NCBI GenBank assembly: GCA_963701025.1 | Contig: OY969557.1 | Span: 442,042 to 506,041, forward strand | From: an uncultured bacterium | GTDB lineage: Bacteria; Patescibacteriota; Minisyncoccia; Phycocordibacterales; PALSA-1337 | DNA: 64,000 nucleotides | Direction of reading: 5' to 3' | Part shown: piece by piece, positions 3,995 to 63,326 of the stretch | Numbering within the stretch: position 1 is the first letter of the stretch | Layout: each line of letters begins with the position of its first letter | Position numbers and translations under genes: made by a program | Notes under the pieces: model-generated | What the model saw: the letters and a program-made list of their open reading frames with translations, nothing else | What the model was told of the DNA's origin: nothing | Database searches by the model: none

Positions 3995-4072
3995 AGACCT
4001 TACGCCGAGGTGATGGCGGCCAAAGCGATAGCCGCGACGAGAGCTATTCCGATTCCGGCAGTCATGTATTCT

Positions 4073-5838
4073 TTATTCCTTTATTCTTTTATTCCTTGCG
4101 TTCATTCCCTTCGCCGCTTTGATAAATTCAGTGAACAATGGGTGCGGCATGAGGGGCCGAGCCAGGAATTCCGGATGGAACTGGGTGCCGAGAAAGAACG
4201 GGTGCGCACTGCGCGGCAATTCGGCTATTTCCATGAGAGTGCCGTCGGGAGACTTGCCCGAAAATACAAGACCGCCCTTTTCAAGCTTTTCTATGTATTT
4301 CGGATTGACCTCATAGCGGTGGCGATGGCGCTCTTTGATGGTGGTCGTCGGCTTCGACAATTTCTTGCCTTGGAAATAAGAATAGGCTTCCTGGGCTATA
4401 GTGCCCTTGCCAAGCTTAGCCGGATAGAGACCCAGTCGCATGGTGCCGCCGTAATTCCCCTCTGCTATCTTCTTTTTTTGGTCGGGCATGATGTCTATGA
4501 CCGGATGCGGTGACTTAGGGTCTATCTCCGCCGTGTGGGCGCCGTGGAGTCGCAAGACGTTCCTGGCGAATTCCACAGTCATGAGCTGCATGCCGTAGCA
4601 CAGGCCGAAATACGGTATACCCTTCTTCCGGGCGTAGTTGATGACTGCGAGCTTGCCCTCGATGCCGCTCTCGCCGAAGCCGCCGGGCACGATGATGCCG
4701 TCGAACGAAAGGAGGTTGGAGTAAGGAGAATGAGGCAAGGATGATTCGGTTTCCGAGTTTTTTCTTCTTTCTCCCTGCTTCCTGCTCCCTTCGCCTTGCC
4801 CTCAAAATCGCGGGCATTCACCGTATGGATGACCGCCTTGACCTTGTTGGCGTAAGCCGAAAATTTGATGGCTTCCAAAACCGAGATGTATGAGTCAGAC
4901 AAGATGAAATCCCCTGTATTGAAATATTTGCCCACGATGGCGATGTTGACGATGTTCTCGGAATGATCCTTGATGCCCTTTGCCATCTTTTTCCAAGCTT
5001 GGAATCTTTTATCCGTCTTCCGTGCATCCAAACCTATAGATTTCAAAAGCAACTCCGCTAAGTGGTCTTTTTCAAAATTTATCGGAACGTCATATATGCT
5101 TTCTATATCAGGCGCAGATATGACATGCTTTGGCAGAACATTGCAAGTAAAGGCGATCTTATCCTTGCGTTTCTGATCCAATGCGATCGGTCCTCTGGCT
5201 ATGATGAAATCGGCCTGCACCCCGTAGCTGTTCAACTGCTTCACGGCATTTTGGGTAGGCTTGGATTTCATCTCGCCTATCGTGCCCGGTACCGGAAGAT
5301 AAGAGACCATGATGAAGACCACTTCATGTGGATGCCTTATTTTTAGAACGCGCGCCGCCTCGATGAACATGACATTCTGGTAATCTCCTACCGTCCCTCC
5401 GATCTCGACAATCGTGACATCAGATTTATTTATCTTGGCGCTATGTTCTATCCGCCGGACAATCTCTTCACGGACATGGTCCGCATCGACGAATCGACCG
5501 CCGTATTCCAACGCTCGTTCCTTATCGATTACGCGCTTGTAGACCATGCCACTGGTGATGTAGTCGTCGGCGGTCAGGTCGCGGCCCAGGAAGCGCTCGT
5601 AATTTCCCATGTCCTGGTCCGTCTCAAGACCGGAATCGAGGACGAAGACCTCGCCGTGCTCGGTCGGATTCATGGTGCCGGCGTCCACGTTCAGGTATGG
5701 GTCCACCTTGACCAGATTGACCTTGTAGCCTTTGGCGGAAAGGAGCGTGCCGATAGAGGAAGTGGCTATGCCCTTGCCGACGCCGGACATCACGCCGCCG
5801 ATGACGAAGATGTATCTGTGGGGACTCGGCTTCTTCAT
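4073..5838 (-). CDS. pyrG: CTP synthase, interrupted by a 1-nt frameshift inside a GA-rich insertion (about 4745-4800)
   Basis: N-terminal synthase domain (GVGKGI..., DPYLNVDAG) in one frame. GATase domain (GIIVPGGFG, LCYGMQ, HPEF) in another. The shift falls in gaagaaaaaactc. Confidence 0.9.
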
Positions 5839-6481: not shown

Positions 6482-7439
6482 TTACACCCTCAAATATCTC
6501 CTCGCCGCTATGTAGCTCGACACGCCGCCGAGGACGATGCCGGAGCCCATGATCATGACGAATATCTGCCCGAAATTCTGGACGAAATACGAGGAGAAGA
6601 CGTTGACGATGAGGGAGAAATTCGAGGCCACCTCGACGCCGGCGAGCTTGAGGATGACTGTGTCGCTCCAATAGGCGAAGACCGCCATGAGAACGAGGGT
6701 GATCACTGCCGAGACGATGCCGTACATGATGCCGGAGACCACGAACGGCCCGCGGACGTAGGTGTTGCTGGCGCCGACGAGCTTCATGACGGATATCTCG
6801 TCCCGCGCGGCGTATATGATGAGCCGGATGGTGTTGAAGACGACGATGAGGGCCACCAGCACCAGAAGAGCGGCGATGATCGAGCCCGACGTCTCGACCG
6901 TGGGTATGATGGCGCTCAAGCGGTCGATGATGAGCTTGTTCTCCTGATAATTGACGCTGTCGATGATGGGCGTGCCGGAAGCGTCCGTCGGATTCTTGCT
7001 GGTCAGAAAATCGGCGATATTGGCGTATTGGCCGGGATCCTTGGCTTTGATATTGAGCGAAGCGGGAAAAGGATTGCCGCCGACTTCCTGGAGGCCCTGC
7101 ATGATGAGGGCGTTGTTCTGCCACTTGGCCTGGAAGGAGGCCAGGGCGTCGATCGGCCGAGACATAGGTGGTCGAAGCCACTTCCGGGAGATTGTTGATC
7201 TCCTTTTGCAGAGCCAGGATGTCCGGTTCCTGGGCAGTCAGACTGAAATAGACATTGATGTCCACTTTATCCTTGACATCTGCCAAGAGCGAGCGGCCGA
7301 AAGCGCTGGCGAAGACGATGCCGCCGAAAGCCGACAACGACAGCGTGATGACGAGCACGGCCGCGAACGACAGGAAGCCATTGCGCCAGAAATTGACGAA
7401 ACCCGTCCTCGTTATCCTTTTAAAAGTGGTAAAAATCAT
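6482..7439 (-). CDS. ftsX: cell division permease FtsX, 1-nt frameshift near 7160
   Basis: The N-terminal periplasmic domain and the C-terminal 4-TM permease are in adjacent frames. Deleting one C in gatcgac restores ...YVSADDALASFQAKW. Confidence 0.8.
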
Positions 7440-7448
7440 TTTAGATAA

Positions 7449-7481
7449 TTAGGTCAATTAGAAATTAGATCAATTTACAAA
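7449..7481 (+). repeat. intergenic repeat TTAGGTCAATTAGAAATTAG(ATCAATTTACAAA), copy 1
   Basis: The same 20-33 nt motif recurs at 8191-8210 (reverse complement), 8602-8643, 25236-25250 (reverse complement, partial) and 46218-46238. Confidence 0.7.
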
Positions 7482-8155
7482 ATGTATTTCCCCGTCTTGC
7501 TGTCGTGGATGACCTTTCCCTTCTCCATGGTGATGACCCGCCCGCCGACGGCGTCGACGACGCCTTTGTTGTGGGTGGTCAGAAGGACGGTGGTGCCGAG
7601 CTCGTTCACCTTCTTCAGGATGCGGACGATCTCGAAGGTGTTCGTCGGGTCGAGATTGCCGGTCGGTTCGTCGGCGATGATGATGTCCGGCTGGGTGACG
7701 ATGGCCCGGGCGATGGCCACCCGCTGGCGCTCGCCGCCGGAGAGCTCGTGGGGAAAGTTCCAGATCTTGTTACCGATATCCACCAAGCCGAGGACGTGCG
7801 GCACGTCCGCCGCCACCTCCGCGTCGCTCCGGCCCGAAGCTTCCATGGCGAAGGCGATGTTCTCATAGACGGTCTTTCCCGGTATCAGGCGATAGTCCTG
7901 GAAGACCGTGCCGATCCTCCGGCGGAGCTTGCTCATCTGCCGCTTATTCAGGCTGTGCACGTCTGTCGATTCCAGATAGACCGTGCCCTCTGTCGGATAA
8001 TCCTCGGCGATGAGCATCTTCATCAGTGTCGTCTTGCCCGCGCCGCTGTGGCCCACGATCGTGACGAATTCCTTCGGCTCCACGCCGAAGCTGACGTTGT
8101 CGAGAGCGACGGAATTGTCGGGATAGATTTTAGAGACTTTGTCGTAGTAGATCAT
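7475..8155 (-). CDS. ftsE: cell division ABC ATPase FtsE
   Basis: Walker A GHSGAGKTT, ABC signature LSGGERQR, Walker B IIIADEPTGNLD. Confidence 0.9.
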   Translation of the reverse strand: MIYYDKVSKIYPDNSVALDNVSFGVEPKEFVTIVGHSGAGKTTLMKMLIAEDYPTEGTVYLESTDVHSLNKRQMSKLRRRIGTVFQDYRLIPGKTVYENIAFAMEASGRSDAEVAADVPHVLGLVDIGNKIWNFPHELSGGERQRVAIARAIVTQPDIIIADEPTGNLDPTNTFEIVRILKKVNELGTTVLLTTHNKGVVDAVGGRVITMEKGKVIHDSKTGKYIL

Positions 8156-8190
8156 GGGATATCAATCATTCAATAATACCATGAAGTAGA

Positions 8191-8229
8191 CTAATTTCTA
8201 ATTGACCTAATTACCTAATTGACCTAAGG
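8191..8229 (-). repeat. intergenic repeat copy 2 (reverse-complement orientation, 1.5 copies)
   Basis: ctaatttctaattgacctaa plus ttacctaattgacctaa. Forms a perfect 20 bp inverted pair with 8602-8621. Confidence 0.7.
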
Positions 8230-8290
8230 AGTGATTAATGACATTGACATGGATAATTTCAAGTGTAATATCTAATTAGGAGAACATATT

Positions 8291-8539
8291 ATGAAAAATA
8301 GAGAAAACCGCATGAAGACGGTGAAAAGACAGCAATGCGTCGTGACGAAGCGTGCCATAAGGTGCGGTCGCGACCTGTTTCGTGTCACGGTGGAATACCT
8401 TGATCAGAGAAAGGAAGTGCATGCACAGGAGTGTCTTACTGGTGACGGCACCTTACGCCCCGGCGTCAAATGCTTGTTGAGGACGATTGAGAATGTCGGC
8501 GATGAAGTTAAAGTCGTCGAAAGGCCACATTTATTTTAG
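8291..8539 (+). CDS. small hypothetical protein (82 aa) bracketed by the inverted repeat pair
   Basis: AGGAG RBS. Followed by a strong terminator. No recognisable domain. Confidence 0.4.
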   Translation: MKNRENRMKTVKRQQCVVTKRAIRCGRDLFRVTVEYLDQRKEVHAQECLTGDGTLRPGVKCLLRTIENVGDEVKVVERPHLF

Positions 8540-8557
8540 TTCTGTTCCTTGCAGTAT

Positions 8558-8585
8558 GGCGGCCTTCATTGTGCCGCCTTTTTTC
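8558..8585 (+). terminator. rho-independent terminator
   Basis: ggcggc cttcattgt gccgcc followed by TTTTTTC. Confidence 0.6.
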
Positions 8586-8601
8586 TTAGAACTTAGATCA
8601 A

Positions 8602-8643
8602 TTAGGTCAATTAGAAATTAGTTTAATTAGATCAATTTACAAA
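8602..8643 (+). repeat. intergenic repeat copy 3 (with 9 nt internal duplication)
   Basis: ttaggtcaattagaaattag tttaattag atcaatttacaaa, immediately 3' of the prfB stop. Confidence 0.7.
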
Positions 8644-9545
8644 TCTCTTTCAGCTTCTATAAACCCCTGAATGTCACCATCTAATATTTTGTCTACGGAT
8701 GATGTCTCAAAATTCGTCCTATGATCTTTTACCATCTTATACGGATGCAAAACGTATGAGCGGATCTGATTGCCCCATTCGATGGAGGTCGTCGAGGCGA
8801 GCTGCATGCCTTTTTCGCGGGCCATGCGCTCGTCTTCCATGCGCTTCCAGAGCTTGCCGCGCAGGATGTCCATGGCTTTCTCGCGGTTCTGGGCCTGCGA
8901 ACGCTCGGAGGTGACATGGATGGAAATGCCGGTCGGCTTATGAAGGAGGCGCACGGCGGTCTCGCGCTTGTTCACGTTCTGGCCGCCGGGACCTCCCGAC
9001 TTGGCGATCGAGACTTCGACGTCGGCGTCCGGAATGGCGATATCGCTCTCGGAGGTCTTCTCGAATTTCGGCAAAACCTCTACCAACGAAAAAGAGGTGT
9101 GACGCTTTTTATTGGAATCGAACGGCGATATGCGGACCAAACGGTGCACGCCAGACTCGTTCTTGAGCGTGCCGTAGGCGCCTAGGCCGCCAGCGCCGCC
9201 ACCTTTGCCGCCTATCTCGATGGTCAGATTCCTATAGCCGCCGTGGTCATTTTCATTGGAATGTATGACCTGCCAAGCCCACCCCTTGTTATCGCAATAC
9301 TTACGATACATCTTGAGAAGCATAGCCGAAAAATCCTCCGCGTCATCACCGCCGGCGCCGGAGAGGATGGAGAGTATGGCATCGCCTTTGTCATATTTCC
9401 CCACTCCTTCAAGCTCGGCTTTGAGATTGGCCAGCTCCTTGATCGTGGCCTGGGCCTTGTCCTTGTTAGACCAGAAATCCCCCGCGGCCATGGCGGCCTC
9501 GAGAGCGGTGATCTTCTCCTGAATTTTTTCTTTATCGTTTTTCAT
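8637..9545 (-). CDS. prfB: peptide chain release factor 2 (SPF motif), short N-terminus
   Basis: GGQ motif ([11 protein letters not shown]) and SPF tripeptide (RISPFDS). 303 aa. No canonical CUU-UGA +1 frameshift site upstream. Confidence 0.85.
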
Positions 9546-9565: not shown

Positions 9566-9641
9566 TGGAGCCAAAGCCCGGGATCGGACCGGGGACCTTC
9601 GCTTTACGAAAGCGACGCTCTACCAACTGAGCTACTTTGGC
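9566..9641 (-). tRNA. tRNA-Thr(CGU), CCA encoded
   Basis: GCCAAAGTAGCTCAGTTGGTAGAGC...CTTTCGTAAAG (anticodon CGT)...GGTCCGATCCCGGGCTTTGGCTCCA. Confidence 0.85.
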
Positions 9642-10087
9642 ATCATTTTCATCAACATGCGCCCTTCCAAGATTCTACTACTAACAACTCTATCAACGCG
9701 ACCATACCCCTTGTTTGACCCTCCATACGTAGGGGTAAGAGAATCGCAATTTGGACACAATAACCTGAGATTATTTTCAATGTTATTACGCCAATTGCCA
9801 TCTATATGATCGGCCACAAGGGGAACTATACCAGTTTTTATGTTCATAATCGACCACCCACATAAGACACATCTATTATCAAACTTCTCACGTAAATATT
9901 TCTTAACATGTACCGAGACAGTGCCGATGCTACTTAAACCGCTGACTTCACCCGATTTCCATCTCTTAATGTATTCTCTGCGCTGGAATTCCTGTTGACA
10001 GGTATTGCTGCAGTATTTGTACGCAGCTTTAGCGGGTTCTCCGCCACAGACGAGACATTTCATTCTTATTTTCTTAGGCATTGGCAT
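9632..10087 (-). CDS. free-standing HNH endonuclease (151 aa)
   Basis: CxxC...CxxC zinc-knuckle pairs plus a [25 protein letters not shown] core. Sits between the two tRNA-Thr genes and overlaps the 5' end of tRNA-Thr(CGU) by about 10 nt. Confidence 0.75.
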
Positions 10088-10139
10088 AATGCCGAGTATA
10101 TCTAATCTATGAAACCCCGTCAAAAAATAATTTCTATTG

Positions 10140-10405
10140 TGGAGCCGTTGATCGGGATTGAACCGATGACCTCGCCATTCGTTTACACCTCTCCTTACGG
10201 GAGGACTAGACTGTATCTTTCTCCGCCTATCGTGGAGACCCTTGTCAGTCGTTCGGGCGCTATGCATAGCAAGCGCCACGGTCTTATCCATCGATAATAC
10301 GTCGGACTTTAACCGTTATTCGGGATTCACATATATGTTACCAAGTATGTGGGCAGGGTCTTACGACCTACCAATGGCGTGCTCTACCAACTGAGCTACA
10401 ACGGC
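10140..10405 (-). tRNA. tRNA-Thr(GGU) interrupted in the anticodon loop (after U36) by a 190 nt intron
   Basis: Exon 1 (10370-10405) is GCCGTTGTAGCTCAGTTGGTAGAGCACGCCATTGGT. Exon 2 (10140-10179) is AATGGCGAGGTCATCGGTTCAATCCCGATCAACGGCTCCA. Together they give a canonical 76 nt tRNA. Confidence 0.7.
10180..10369 (-). ncRNA. candidate group I intron (no ORF) in tRNA-Thr(GGU)
   Basis: The 5' exon ends in U and the insert ends in G (omega-G). There are GNRA hairpins (GGUC-GUAA-GACC; CUCC-CGUAA-GGAG). The stretch AAGAUACAGUCUAGUCC resembles the group I S element/P7 (UAGUC) with a partner GACUG. Confidence 0.5.
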
Positions 10406-11543: not shown

Positions 11544-13043
11544 TTATTCTATCTCGCCGAGGAAATCTTTGCCCGCCTCGAAAAGGGTTTTCTCATCCCC
11601 GTGCCTGGCCGTCAGCTGGAGTCCCATTGGCAGAGGCGGGTTTTTTCCTTCCTGCTTCCTGCTTCCTGCTTCCTGTCCCATCGGCACTGATATCGCCGGC
11701 ATGCCAGTCAGGTTGGCGGTCACGGTGAATATGTCCTCGAGATACATGGCCATAGGATCGCTCGCTTTCTCGCCGATCTTGAAAGCCGGAGAAGGCGCCG
11801 TCGGCGTGAGGATGAGGTCGGCTCCTCCGCCAGCCGGATCGAACGCTTCTATGAAATCATCCGTGATCATCCGGCGCACTGCATTGGCCCGGTTGTAATA
11901 TGCGTCGTAATATCCGGACGAGAGGACGTAGGTTCCGAGAAGGATGCGCCTGATGACTTCCCTGCCGAAGCCCGCCCTCCGGCTCTTGAAATAATCGTCT
12001 ATGCCGTCTTTGCCGTCCACGTGCAGGCCGTATCTCATGCCGTCGTAGCGGGCCATGTTGGAGGAGACTTCGGCGAAGTTAAGGATATAGTAGACCGGCA
12101 GGGCGTATCCGTTGGCCGGCAATTCTATGTCTTTGATCTCATAGCCGAGGCTTTTGAATCTTTCTTCGGCCGCTTCAAAAGATTCTTTTACGCGTGCGTC
12201 TATGCCGCCCATAGCCAAAAAAGCTCGCGGGATCCCAATGATTGGTTTTTTTTCTCCTTTCTCCTTTCTACTTTCTACTTTCTCTTTTATAGTCGTGCCG
12301 TCGTGGGCGTCTTTGCCTCGGATAGCATTGAAAATTATCTCGGCGTCTCCCACTGTCTTGGCTATCGGACCGATCTGATCAAAAGAGGAAACCGCGGCCA
12401 TAAGCCCGTACCGGGAAACGGCTCCGTACGTCGGTTTCAATCCGACGACTCCGCAGAAGCTCGACGGCTGTCTGATAGAACCGCCCGTGTCCGATCCGAG
12501 AGCGGCCAAAGCCATGCCCGAAGCGACTGCCGCAGCCGAGCCGCCGGAAGTGCCTCCGGGCACCCGTGAAAGATCATGCGGATTCTTGGTCGGCCCGTAG
12601 GCGGAATTTTCCGTGGAGCCGCCCATGGCGAATTCGTCCATGTTGGTCCGGCCGAGGAACACCGCTCCTTCCCTGCCGAGTTTGGCGATGACGGTGGCAT
12701 TGTATGTCGCTTGGTATTTCTCCAGGATCTTGGAAGCCGAGCTCGCGATCTTGCCCTGTATCAGGATATTATCCTTGATAGCCAATGGGATGCCGCACAA
12801 TGCCGGTATCGGCTGGTTATTTTTCTTGCACTTGGCGATCATGGCGTCGGCTTTTTTCGCGGCTTCGATCGCGTCATCGAAGACTTCCAGGTAGGCGTGG
12901 ATGTCTTTATTTTTTGCGGCAATTTGGTCCAGATACGCTTGCGTCAATTCGACCGCCGTAAAGTCGTCATCGACAAGATGTTCGTGGGCTTTTTTGATGG
13001 TGAAGGTGGTGATGTCTATCTTCATGGTATTCGAAAGTGTCAA
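11544..13043 (-). CDS. gatA: Asp/Glu-tRNA amidotransferase subunit A (two in-frame GA-rich inserts)
   Basis: Amidase signature GGSSGGSAAAVA. Full-length 499 aa. Confidence 0.95.
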   Translation of the reverse strand: MTLSNTMKIDITTFTIKKAHEHLVDDDFTAVELTQAYLDQIAAKNKDIHAYLEVFDDAIEAAKKADAMIAKCKKNNQPIPALCGIPLAIKDNILIQGKIASSASKILEKYQATYNATVIAKLGREGAVFLGRTNMDEFAMGGSTENSAYGPTKNPHDLSRVPGGTSGGSAAAVASGMALAALGSDTGGSIRQPSSFCGVVGLKPTYGAVSRYGLMAAVSSFDQIGPIAKTVGDAEIIFNAIRGKDAHDGTTIKEKVESRKEKGEKKPIIGIPRAFLAMGGIDARVKESFEAAEERFKSLGYEIKDIELPANGYALPVYYILNFAEVSSNMARYDGMRYGLHVDGKDGIDDYFKSRRAGFGREVIRRILLGTYVLSSGYYDAYYNRANAVRRMITDDFIEAFDPAGGGADLILTPTAPSPAFKIGEKASDPMAMYLEDIFTVTANLTGMPAISVPMGQEAGSRKQEGKNPPLPMGLQLTARHGDEKTLFEAGKDFLGEIE

Positions 13044-25199: not shown

Positions 25200-25235
25200 G
25201 TCTTGAAAATTTCTAATTTCCGCCAGCTGGCGGAC

Positions 25236-25250
25236 TAATTGACCTAATTC
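25236..25250 (-). repeat. intergenic repeat copy 4 (partial) next to CCGCCAGCTGGCGG palindrome
   Basis: ctaattgacctaatt preceded by the 14 bp perfect palindrome at 25220-25233. Confidence 0.5.
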
Positions 25251-25251
25251 C

Positions 25252-25650
25252 CTAAGCCTTCTTCGATGCAGTTATACTCTCCACTTCCGCCAGGACCTCT
25301 GACGGTATGGTCGTGGCCTTGACGATATATCCGTCCACGTCGAGCTTATGCGAACGAGCCACGTCGTCGGACGATCCCTGATTTGTGAGCATGATGACGA
25401 TCGCGGCGGGAGCCAGCTTCTCGGCGCGGACAGTGGAAACAAACTCCAGGCCGTCTATGCCCGGCATGACGATGTCGACCAGCATGATGTCGGGAACGTA
25501 TCCGTCGCGGACGAGCTTTAGCCCCGCATCGGTGGAATCGGCGGTCTTGACATCATAGCCAGACTTGCGAAATTTTATGGCGTACATGTCTAGAAGGAAC
25601 GTGTCGTCGTCGAGAAGGAGGATCTTTTTTGGTGATGTGGGATCGGACAT
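25252..25650 (-). CDS. response regulator receiver domain protein (CheY/PilH-like)
   Basis: LLLDDD ... D(54)-like MLVDIVMPGIDG ... K. Confidence 0.85.
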   Translation of the reverse strand: MSDPTSPKKILLLDDDTFLLDMYAIKFRKSGYDVKTADSTDAGLKLVRDGYVPDIMLVDIVMPGIDGLEFVSTVRAEKLAPAAIVIMLTNQGSSDDVARSHKLDVDGYIVKATTIPSEVLAEVESITASKKA

Positions 25651-41350: not shown

Positions 41351-41423
41351 AACATCGAACCTGAATTTCATTCCATTGTTGAGCCACTTATGGAGTGAAT
41401 ATTTGCCGTTTCTACCAAGTTTG

Positions 41424-41497
41424 TCCGCCCTCTTGGATTCGAACCAAGGACCGCAGAGGTATAAGCTCTGTGCTCTAACCAACTGAGCTAAGGGCGG
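41424..41497 (-). tRNA. tRNA-Ile(UAU)
   Basis: Anticodon loop CUUAUAC. GGTTCGAATCC T-arm. Acceptor stem CCGCCCT/AGGGCGG. Confidence 0.75.
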
Positions 41498-45698: not shown

Positions 45699-45757
45699 CA
45701 AGTATGAATTGAGAGATTGGGAATTGAATATTGATCTCCAATTTCCAATACCAATCC

Positions 45758-46217: not shown

Positions 46218-46238
46218 TTAGGTCAATTAGAAATTAAG
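46218..46238 (+). repeat. intergenic repeat copy 5
   Basis: ttaggtcaattagaaattaag. Confidence 0.6.
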
Positions 46239-46254
46239 AATTATACTTATTCCC

Positions 46255-62867: not shown

Positions 62868-62904
62868 GGCGGTTAATTGGAGATTGAGTATTGAAAATTG
62901 GAAA

Positions 62905-63294
62905 TTACCATATCTTGAATAGAATCTCGCCGCCGAGCTTGTTCTTCTTGGCCTCCATGTCGGTCATGATGCCTTTGGAAGTGGAGAGAACTAGATTGCC
63001 GAAGCCGCTCCTGAATGAACGGATATCGCTGGCTTTCTGATATAAGCGGCGGGACGGCTTGGACAAGCGCTCTACCCCGTGGATGCGCGGCTCGCCGTCG
63101 AAGTAGACCAGGCCGAGCTCGATCTCTCGCCTGGTCTTCGACTTCTCGACTGAAGATAAATAGCCGGCCTTCTTCAGGCTGTGGGCCACGTTCTCGGCGA
63201 ACTTCGAGGCGAGGACCGCAACGGATGCTTTCTTGGCGTCGCTACCGTTCTTGATGCGGATGATGAGGTCTGATATAGGGTCGGTTACCATGAT
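62905..63294 (-). CDS. rpsH: 30S ribosomal protein S8
   Basis: MVTDPISDLIIRIKNG ... FKIW. Confidence 0.85.
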   Translation of the reverse strand: MMVTDPISDLIIRIKNGSDAKKASVAVLASKFAENVAHSLKKAGYLSSVEKSKTRREIELGLVYFDGEPRIHGVERLSKPSRRLYQKASDIRSFRSGFGNLVLSTSKGIMTDMEAKKNKLGGEILFKIW

Positions 63295-63326
63295 AGTAAT
63301 TGAAAATTGGAATTGAGAATTGGTGA

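Follow-up and report, generated by a model that had tools for sequence, protein, structure and literature searches.

A repeated 20-base spacer motif as a probable inverted-repeat arm of an IVS-like insertion element widespread in Patescibacteria

The window, the whole 64-kb stretch of DNA that was analysed, contains a repeated 20-base spacer motif, TTAGGTCAATTAGAAATTAG. Three copies are exact, a fourth has one mismatch and a fifth is interrupted (Table 1), in agreement with the five-copy repeat family of the preliminary description. The four uninterrupted matches compare with 0.01 expected by chance, and four were reached in none of 100 shuffles. In the fifth copy, a 15-16 nt GC palindrome, TCCGCCAGCTGGCGGA, separates the first 13 bases from the rest. 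The palindrome interrupts the canonical 20-mer and is therefore nested within the copy; the association reported earlier stands, although it goes beyond mere adjacency.

Table 1. Arms, copies of the 20-base motif and cargo features in the window
Feature	Position	Strand	Copy of the 20-base motif	Remarks
Solo arm c1	7441..7475	+	7449-7468 (+), exact	TTAG-type words: TTAGATAA TTAGGTCAA TTAGAAA TTAGATCAA TT
Arm c2	8184..8228	-	8191-8210 (-), exact	CTAA-type words on + strand; left arm of the arm-cargo-arm unit
ORF82 promoter, sigma-70-like	8244..8271	+		TTGACA-16-TAATAT, followed by an AGGAG Shine-Dalgarno sequence
ORF82, 82-aa cargo gene	8291..8539	+		no PF05635 match
Terminator-like hairpin	8556..8584	+		GGCGGC-N9-GCCGCC then T6; read from sequence
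Arm c3	8586..8637	+	8602-8621 (+), exact	TTAG-type words; right arm; reaches the prfB stop codon (8637-8639, - strand)
Arm c5	25213..25255	-	25213-25250 (-), interrupted	spacer between a response-regulator gene and pilT; palindrome at 25219-25234
Short solo arm c4	46218..46240	+	46218-46237 (+), one mismatch	divergent smpB/PLD-like spacer

Copies had been placed at the 3' ends of ftsE, prfB and smpB and upstream of pilT. Arm c1 forms the entire spacer from the ftsE stop codon (7475-7477, - strand) to the ftsX start codon (7439), and the placements at ftsE, prfB and pilT hold. The copy near smpB lies instead on the start side of that gene, in a 56-bp spacer running from the smpB start (46198, - strand) to that of a PLD/cardiolipin-synthase-like gene (46255, + strand).

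The copies in c2 and c3 are perfect inverted repeats of 20 bp that enclose an 82-aa ORF, as described, and the repeat extends to 29 nt (93%) plus 16 nt (94%). The 410 bp given for the enclosed unit was only approximate, as 391 bp lie between the 20-mers and 431 bp are obtained when both are counted. The gene ftsE is bracketed likewise, by a 28-nt inverted repeat (7441-7468 and 8191-8218, 96%), so the bracket does not single out the ORF82 cassette. Arm c3 has one 9-nt word more than c1.

The full-sized unit (8184-8637) has the prfB stop codon on one side and the native ftsE promoter on the other. The ribosome-binding site and terminator attributed to the ORF were both found, together with a promoter. 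The hairpin was missed by the terminator scan owing to its 9-nt loop; with A6 ahead of it on the opposite strand, it could work bidirectionally. The ftsE promoter has a TG-extended TATTAT (8173-8178, - strand), and its -35-like TAGAAA is the last word of c2. When 8180-8645 was folded, the arms paired as a terminal stem of ~30 bp (dG -123.7 kcal/mol, z = -5.6). No match to ORF82 was obtained in Pfam, NCBIfam, PDB, PHROGs or PADLOC, and its AlphaFold2 model was unusable (pLDDT 41). Two homologues were found. The homologue in L129 retains the promoter and terminator, lacks the arms and differs from ORF82 at 14 synonymous and 13 non-synonymous codons. As the ORF82 module is armless in L129, arms and cargo need not have moved together.

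We compared the locus with its relatives. The prfB-ftsE spacer is a 481-bp block here and only 4-28 nt in L122, L123, L125/126, L127 and L144; window positions 8156-8636 are therefore an insertion. A presence/absence comparison of the unit had been suggested in the preliminary description, and the block proved to be missing from all five relatives. Similarly, the ftsE-ftsX spacer is a 35-nt array here, compared with 4-46 nt and no array in relatives. All three arrays of the prfB-ftsE-ftsX region were absent from the five relatives, and no TTAG arrays were found across 15-20 kb in relatives. In the close relative L144, a truncated gene for the 23S rRNA intervening-sequence protein (S23p) with TTGG/TTGT words was observed between ftsX and pyrG. 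No target-site duplications were recognisable at 8184/8637 or 7441/7475, where word-like flanks (TAAA...TAAA) preclude the calling of short duplications, and no sharp conserved ends of the element were found.

The 19-base core of the motif matched at least 120 genome stretches, mostly of Patescibacteria, with GC contents of 0.27-0.63. Among the core matches listed, 70 were labelled CPR (Microgenomates, Parcubacteria, Saccharibacteria, Doudna-, Peregrini-, Berkelbacteria and others) and 39 loci had non-CPR labels. The arms are common to many Patescibacteria genomes and near-identical letter for letter. They are built of 7- and 9-nt words in a consistent order, which from 5' to 3' is CTAA words, CCAA words, an interval, TTGG words and TTAG words. 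Word arrays numbered 279 in 877 kb, compared with 3 in locally shuffled controls. Clusters with both array types had the C-then-G order in 35 cases and the opposite order in 1-2, and among neighbouring arrays separated by no more than 60 nt the ratio was 58 C-then-G to 2 G-then-C. At spacings of 151-700 bp there were 14 C...G pairs, 13 of them with gaps of 321-480 bp, and 5 G...C pairs; beyond 700 bp there were 0 and 14, respectively. Telomere-like addition at breaks was rejected, as it predicts G-then-C order, the opposite of that observed.

Arms 320-480 bp apart usually flank a PF05635/TIGR02436 gene, which encodes the Avd-like S23p. The arm-cargo-arm layout, about 400-550 bp in length, recurred at no fewer than 13 loci besides the window, although counts from CPR loci are biased because the loci were picked by the motif seed itself; L144 and the plasmid genes considered below are independent of the seed. 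A PF05635/TIGR02436 gene was present in 11 of 13 units outside the window and was decayed in two of the 11. The first codons of S23p are CCAA words, complementary to the TTGG words 3' of the stop codon. The CPR cargo protein matches 2RLD, a pentameric four-helix-bundle structure, and the units are flanked by protein-coding genes. Copies with adjacent arms, the empty C/G composites of 80-140 bp, look like internally deleted, MITE-like elements. The units were found to contain no transposase or other mobility enzyme; S23p, the one cargo that recurs in them, is not a known transposase. A tblastn search of the 64-kb window returned no S23p-like gene. Thus, what had been described as a repeat family within 64 kb is indeed a repeat but is not local, being common to the superphylum with S23p, not ORF82, as its usual cargo.

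Previously, the copies were suggested to be a set of operators for a transcription factor, and a nucleoid protein of the source organism might be added to this reading. An oriented, repeated spacer motif with some copies upstream of the ftsE, pilT and PLD-like starts would fit such a role. However, two copies occupy gene 3' ends or an operon junction, the motif occurs beside unrelated genes throughout a superphylum, sites are missing from the orthologous promoters of relatives, and arrays occupied 24% of divergent, 22-26% of tandem and 22% of convergent spacers. As the sites are absent in relatives and occupancy is independent of gene orientation (22-26% each), the operator reading is unsupported, and we regard it as very improbable. 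Consideration of the arrays as a promoter class was also rejected, since arrays occur at convergent gene ends too and -35/-10 spacings were inconsistent by eye. An intrinsic terminator/promoter class was discarded for the absence of enrichment by spacer type.

In Neisseria, uptake sequences are frequently found as inverted pairs where genes end, and the window encodes the type IV pilus genes pilB/T/C. It could be supposed that the flanks of the units are DNA-uptake sequences or portable homology arms of naturally competent Patescibacteria, which would also suit the near-identity of arms across lineages. We rate this the least probable of the readings weighed here: the sites are sparse (5 in 64 kb), close relatives are without the motif, the arrays comprise many different words and not one motif, and the link to S23p is left unexplained.

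The arrays abut gene boundaries closely. Usually 0-13 nt separate the array end from the ATG, stop codons often fall within an array, and arrays replace the Shine-Dalgarno spacers within operons (ftsE-ftsX and rpsN-rpsH-rplF). On the sense strand of every gene, G-type words are located 5' and C-type words 3'. These observations, along with the promoter hexamer that ftsE takes from the last c2 word and the position of ORF82, which is at an array centre here yet array-free elsewhere, would be expected if arrays were punctuation kept by the host for RNA processing, stabilisation or insulation, a role also proposed for REP/BIME elements, with S23p and ORF82 landing in them as guests. We consider this unlikely, as close relatives run the same operon array-free with 4-28 nt spacers, even array-rich loci have arrays in just a quarter or so of their spacers, irrespective of whether a gene 3' or 5' end is present, and cognate arms show no co-adaptation. 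Arm complementarity was -0.240 kcal/mol/nt within the same spacer and -0.287 kcal/mol/nt between loci, the cognate arm being better in 7 of 35 comparisons, which argues against fine tuning of individual hairpins. A selected hairpin or terminator was rejected on the grounds that cognate arms were no better matched than non-cognate arms and divergent spacers were not depleted. UAGAAA could pair with the 16S tail, because the 16S 3' end of L019 is CATCTCCTTTCTAGGG; the resulting anti-Shine-Dalgarno idea was dropped, as it leaves the 3'-end arrays and the other words unexplained.

PF05635 genes on plasmids of five other phyla were flanked on both sides by inverted heptamer arrays in 14 of 14 cases. 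The best period was 7 nt in all 28 flanks, and inverted 7-mer sharing was above all 200 shuffles for 8 of the 14 genes. The arrays flanking the cyanobacterial plasmid S23p genes were GTAATTC, GTAAAAA, GTCGGAG, CCCCAAT, CACTGGT and TTTTAGA, and this flanking suggests a tie between such heptamer repeats and S23p. One Calothrix STRR unit, attributed to Mazel et al. in 1990, is said to be TTGGTCA, and TTGGTCA is also among the words of CPR arrays. Cyanobacterial STRRs and the Xanthomonas heptamers resemble the arms in being intergenic 7-nt arrays, often in inverted pairs (PMC4692102); the Xanthomonas GGGAATC heptamers are intergenic, with a 7-nt period, variable length and 70-75 inverted pairs (PMC4692102). 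CPR arrays differ in that they combine 7- and 9-nt words. No tie to S23p genes was found in the accounts consulted of the STRR and Xanthomonas repeats, and literature searches by motif and topic found neither a general link between S23p and heptamer arms nor any account of the CPR arrays.

Many bacteria have an excess of heptamer repeats, for which a slippage origin has been suggested (PMC4692102), and word copy numbers vary here as well, c3 exceeding c1 by a 9-nt word. The arrays might accordingly be local simple-sequence repeats, formed through a common mutational bias by polymerase slippage of 7-nt units in AT-rich spacers and with no mobility. This appears distinctly improbable to us. Slippage leaves unexplained the identical 19-20-mers of differing words in genomes of 27 to 63% GC, the strict C-then-G polarity, the link to one gene family and the blocks of 35-480 bp where relatives have spacers of 4-28 nt.

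The units are most similar to the S23p intervening sequences (IVSs) of 23S rRNA genes in Coxiella burnetii, Leptospira and Brucella and those with the Xanthomonas-type S23p. The 428-nt Coxiella IVS has a 28-bp stem, encodes an S23p whose start codon is preceded by tandem heptamers, and is cut out by RNase III (PMC4990558). The units described here measure 397-549 bp, and in both systems complementary termini form a stem of ~28-30 bp around a loop. The loop of CPR units contains a PF05635 gene as in the IVSs, the window unit differing in that it carries ORF82. Tandem heptamers beside the S23p start correspond to the 7/9-nt words of CPR arms, and decaying S23p ORFs and a selfish character are further shared features (PMC4990558). 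The CPR units differ in residing in protein-gene spacers, not in helix 25 or 45 of 23S rRNA, and in having arms that are word arrays common to a superphylum, with frequent empty or solo-arm derivatives. The window contains no rRNA genes. No part of the window matched an Rfam family at the gathering score, and a search of 7380-8700 at E<=1 was likewise negative.

Similarities to small mobile elements were also noted. BOX elements are modular. MITEs, the Neisseria Correia/NEMIS elements and pneumococcal BOX/RUP are, like the arm elements, small, AT-rich, non-autonomous and intergenic with inverted ends; they vary in presence among relatives, have long hairpins and can donate promoter hexamers. 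Unlike these, the arm elements had no target-site duplication, fixed termini or partner transposase that we could find, and their copies are word combinations, not point-mutated versions of one master sequence. The REP/BIME sequences of enterobacteria are intergenic, co-transcribed with neighbouring genes, alternating in orientation and capable of forming hairpins. The arm elements share the intergenic location, alternating orientation and hairpin potential. REP units are, however, individually palindromic 20-40-mers, species-specific and linked to RAYT transposases, whereas single CPR words are not palindromes and a RAYT-like gene was not observed here. PF05635 proteins are homologous to Avd of diversity-generating retroelements (CDD cd16375; PDB 4DWL vs 2GSC; PMC10053308), although no reverse transcriptase or template/variable repeat pair was present beside the units examined. 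TIGR arrays consist of regular dual-spacer units of about 36 nt beside a tas gene that encodes a Nop domain (PMC12045711); TIGR-Tas guide arrays were rejected for the present loci, which have scattered arrays of 7-9 nt words and no neighbouring tas gene. Phage carriage was likewise discarded, the single IMG/VR match being a chance match in coding sequence.

The present analysis shows the anatomy of the element, its status as an insertion and its family link. Taken together, we conclude with fair confidence that the 20-mer is part of the inverted-repeat arm of a selfish, IVS-like insertion element that is widespread in Patescibacteria. The full element, about 400-550 bp, consists from 5' to 3' of about 35 nt of CTAA-type words, ATG, the S23p (PF05635) gene to its stop codon, TTGG-type words and TTAG-type words. 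Loss of the interior would yield the empty C-arm/G-arm palindromes of 80-140 bp that resemble MITEs, and their further decay would leave solo arms, such as the copies at 7441, 25213 and 46218. In the unit at 8184-8637, the loop holds the unrelated ORF82 module, with its own promoter and terminator, in place of S23p. In read-through transcripts the arms would form a stem of ~30 bp that RNase III could cut, as it does for the S23p IVSs of 23S rRNA; such excision is known for the IVSs and is predicted for the present units from the stem and the Coxiella analogy. Cutting of this stem would let the element reside in operons at little cost, and the elements have probably spread from genome to genome. 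The miniature mobile element or cassette proposed in the preliminary description is thus broadly, though not in its details, supported by the block missing from five relatives, the recurrence of the layout and the stem; its expected target-site duplications were not seen. Several observations count against the element reading: the window unit has no S23p, the ORF82 module is armless in L129, ftsE is also bracketed, target-site duplications and sharp conserved termini are not apparent, cognate arms are no better matched than others, and no mobility enzyme was identified.

A broader and more tentative possibility is that S23p genes and inverted heptamer-word arms constitute one ancient, widespread class of selfish elements that includes STRRs, GGGAATC repeats, IVSs and CPR arrays, with the S23p oligomer recognising its own arrays as DNA or RNA. 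Within one such class, this recognition may promote spread or retention, and the near-identity of CPR arms across phyla may reflect either S23p recognition or recent horizontal spread.

For the window alone, the results mean that the 481-bp prfB-ftsE block is a lineage-specific insertion and not a regulatory region. Annotating such elements is important, since their arrays contribute stop codons, take the place of ribosome-binding spacers and provide essential genes with promoter hexamers. The locus also joins three puzzles that were previously separate: the nature and movement of 23S rRNA intervening sequences and S23p ORFs, the nature of over-represented intergenic heptamer repeats in bacteria, and why CPR assemblies break at low-complexity spacers. 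The arms around ORF82 also bracket S23p in Patescibacteria, and in five other phyla S23p lies between heptamer arrays. If this link holds, the word order would provide a simple sequence grammar for annotating arm elements, and a protein with repeat arms, inserted into operons and tolerated through RNase III, would become a testable model.

Three exact copies of the 20-mer TTAGGTCAATTAGAAATTAG occur in the window, together with one copy carrying a single mismatch and a fifth that is interrupted by a GC palindrome, where 0.01 matches were expected by chance; the repeat family of the preliminary description is thus real. The mismatched copy had been placed at the 3' end of smpB, but lies on the start side of that gene. 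The perfect inverted pair around ORF82, an 82-aa gene with its own ribosome-binding site and hairpin-T6, was confirmed in the sequence, and its arms extend to 29 nt (93%) and a further 16 nt (94%). Such bracketing is not peculiar to the ORF82 cassette, because ftsE is bracketed by an inverted repeat as well. The palindrome TCCGCCAGCTGGCGGA occurs once in the window, nested in an array of short words. A GC-rich perfect palindrome, CCTGCCTGCCGGCAGGCAGG, is also nested in word arrays after an AATT in two other genomes (L057, 6852-6871; L105, 115-134), and these small palindromes may represent a second tiny insertion element.

Positions of the features considered here, in window coordinates
Feature	Position	Strand	Remark
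20-mer, exact	7449	+
20-mer, exact	8191	-
20-mer, exact	8602	+
20-mer, one mismatch	46218	+	within divergent spacer at smpB start
20-mer, interrupted	25213-25250	-	split after base 13 by TCCGCCAGCTGGCGGA
Palindrome TCCGCCAGCTGGCGGA	25219-25234		after an AATT
Inverted repeat around ftsE	7441-7468/8191-8218		28 nt, 96%
Inserted block	8156-8636		481 bp
Inserted array	7440-7474		35 nt
ORF82	8291-8539		promoter TTGACA-16-TAATAT; ribosome-binding site AGGAG; GC hairpin then T6
ATTG/CAAT-type 7-nt word arrays	62868-62907; 63292-63326		fill rpsH-rplF and rpsN-rpsH spacers
Hairpin of similar words	45703-45751		short, G-then-C; between tmRNA gene and smpB
ftsX ORFs	6482-7165; 7153-7439		frameshift ~7152
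pyrG frameshift	~4760
pilB frameshift	~26100
tRNA-Ile, anticodon TAT	41423-41497
219-aa ORF	9632-10291	-	between tRNA-Thr and tRNA-Asp; HNH-like motif
Periodic low-complexity runs	4059-4102; 12262-12294		short; TATTCTT/TATTCCT units; TTTCTAC twice

The gene order prfB-ftsE-ftsX-pyrG is kept in five relatives, defined by FtsE identity of 89-93% or membership of the same 90% cluster; coding DNA of one, L122, is 81% identical to the window. Their prfB-ftsE spacers measure 4-28 nt and their ftsE-ftsX spacers 4-46 nt, and no TTAG arrays were found in 15-20 kb of any of them. Given these short, array-free spacers, the 481-bp block and the 35-nt array are lineage-specific insertions. The earlier proposal of a miniature mobile element held in part: the prfB-ftsE insertion is absent from relatives, but no recognisable target-site duplications were found flanking the copies. 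The competing proposal, a set of transcription factor operators, was not supported. The native ftsE promoter, TGGTATTAT, survives directly downstream of the inserted block (counterpart in the relative L127, TGGTATAAT). S23p/heptamer elements come and go in this lineage, because what the close relative L144 has is a truncated PF05635 gene accompanied by TTGG/TTGT heptamer words, located between ftsX and pyrG.

The window resembles part of a Paceibacteria (Parcubacteria) genome, with GC-rich genes, AT-rich spacers and type IV pilus genes; its best FtsE matches are named Paceibacterota, Pacebacteria or Taylorbacteria. Frameshifts break three conserved genes. There is one extra base in ftsX at 7152 relative to L122, and pyrG and pilB show the same split pattern in ORF lists; either the assembly has indel errors at these places or the genes are pseudogenes. 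The tRNA-Ile has an anticodon that is uncommon in bacteria. The 219-aa ORF had no Pfam match at E<=0.01, and in relatives the equivalent place upstream of prfB holds ORFs whose LAGLIDADG matches are faint or weak. The two low-complexity runs lie outside the TTAG/TTGG vocabulary.

No family or fold was detectable for ORF82, which has two homologues. One of these, in L129, is 83% identical and keeps the promoter, ribosome-binding site and terminator among other neighbours and without arms, which makes ORF82 a small gene module in its own right. Codon differences between the two (14 synonymous, 13 non-synonymous) suggest a real gene under moderate constraint.

A 19-base core was scanned over one genome per species, and at least 120 stretches matched. 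Among the matches listed, 70 carry names of CPR (Patescibacteria), spanning Microgenomates, Parcubacteria, Saccharibacteria, Doudnabacteria, Peregrinibacteria and Berkelbacteria, 39 are nominally non-CPR by the labels as given, and a few are plain chance matches inside coding sequence; GC of these loci ranges from 27 to 63%. Of the 120 listed, at least 90 have the core inside longer arrays of 7- and 9-nt words (TTAGAAA, TTAGGTCAA, TTAGGTTAA, TTAGATCAA, TTGGGAT, TTGGTCA and others). A simple word pattern recovered 279 arrays in 877 kb, versus 3 after local shuffling. On either strand, spacers read 5'-[CTAA words][CCAA words]-centre-[TTGG words][TTAG words]-3'. Clusters with both array types had C-type (CTAA/CCAA) before G-type (TTGG/TTAG) words in 35 cases and the reverse in 1-2 by a separate tally; for neighbouring arrays <=60 nt apart the figures were 58 versus 2. 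The outermost words reach the genes, with mostly 0-13 nt from array end to ATG, and a stop codon lies inside or beside the array in about half of adjacent opposite-strand genes.

Occupancy was alike whether the spacer was divergent (24%), tandem (22-26%) or convergent (22%), and complementarity between arms sharing a spacer was no higher than with arms of other loci. Both results speak against dedicated terminators or promoters and against hairpins tuned one by one.

Several other patterns were observed. An Uhrbacteria contig (L063, ~2730-2786) has a (CCCTAAT)n run, the complement of (ATTAGGG)n, after a word array, a perfect tandem expansion of one word. The 16S 3' terminus of an Azambacteria stretch (L019), ...GGAACATCTCCTTTCTAGGG, has CUCC rather than CCUCC in its anti-Shine-Dalgarno region, and next to it UUUCUA on the 3' side, complementary to UAGAAA, which is the commonest word core. 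In the window, the rpsN-rpsH-rplF arrays (in gene sense, e.g. CCAATTC TCAATTC CAATTTT CAATTAC) replace any Shine-Dalgarno sequence; with the tmRNA-smpB hairpin, whose words are similar, they are probably the same phenomenon in another vocabulary.

Array pairs 151-700 bp apart comprised 14 of C...G type, including the window pair (358-bp gap), and 5 of G...C type; beyond 700 bp there were 0 and 14. The gap was 321-480 bp in 13 of the 14 C...G pairs. A gene of ~120 aa fills 11 of the 13 units outside the window (two are decayed), matching PF05635 '23S rRNA-intervening sequence protein' (E = 1e-9 to 1e-14), TIGR02436 'four helix bundle protein' (2e-16) and the pentameric structure 2RLD. In gene sense, the host stop codon is followed by CTAA words over ~35 nt, then by 2-3 nt and the ATG; CCAA words encode a low-complexity N-terminus (TNxQNPK) ahead of the four-helix-bundle body, and after TAA come TTGG words, TTAG words and the host start codon. 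Given this layout, 'empty' C/G composites look like internal deletions of S23p units. Arms in other vocabularies, CCAAATT/TTGGAAT and CAAAAGT/TTTTGAG, accompany two S23p copies that are divergent, at 38-40% identity. In the window's genome ORF82 takes the place normally held by S23p; it may have been captured by the element, landed in an empty element's centre, or been flanked later by two solo arms.

[quoted passage not shown] Avd, which serves diversity-generating retroelements as an accessory protein, is homologous to PF05635 proteins (PMC10053308).

A tblastn search of plasmids with a CPR S23p protein returned 31 records, 16 from Nostoc; 14 were inspected, from Cyanobacteriota, Bacteroidota, Spirochaetota, Bacillota and Chloroflexota. 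Short-word arrays stood on both sides of the S23p gene in 14/14, the best local period was 7 nt in 28/28 flanks, and inverted 7-mer sharing exceeded all 200 shuffles in 8/14. The words are lineage-specific (GTAATTC, GTAAAAA, GTCGGAG, CCCCAAT, CACTGGT, TTTTAGA, GATGAAG, CTCTCCG): the proteins are most alike (85% and 80%) in pairs with shared words, although proteins that are 70-76% identical can also have different words. These genes interrupt operons (cas2/cas1, hsdS/hsdR, helicase/methylase, RND adaptor/permease). Defence operons recur as sites in plasmids of cyanobacteria, Bacteroidota, Bacillota and Chloroflexota (L130-L143): cas2/cas1 (twice, opposite strand), hsdS/hsdR, helicase/N6-methylase and DUF1156/HEPN. 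Heptamer repeats between genes of Xanthomonas (GGGAATC, 70-75 inverted pairs), Nostoc and Calothrix were described as unexplained (PMC4692102). A limited literature search, which is not proof of novelty, found no paper tying these to S23p genes and no description of CPR word arrays.

We consider it reasonably likely that the 20-mer copies are arms of an S23p-associated, IVS-like family of selfish elements, with one full-sized unit at prfB/ftsE bearing non-canonical cargo and the remainder solo arms. When a prfB-to-ftsE read-through transcript of the unit was folded, the two arms closed a ~30-bp stem (dG -123.7 kcal/mol, z = -5.6). Processing of such a stem by RNase III would make insertion tolerable inside operons.
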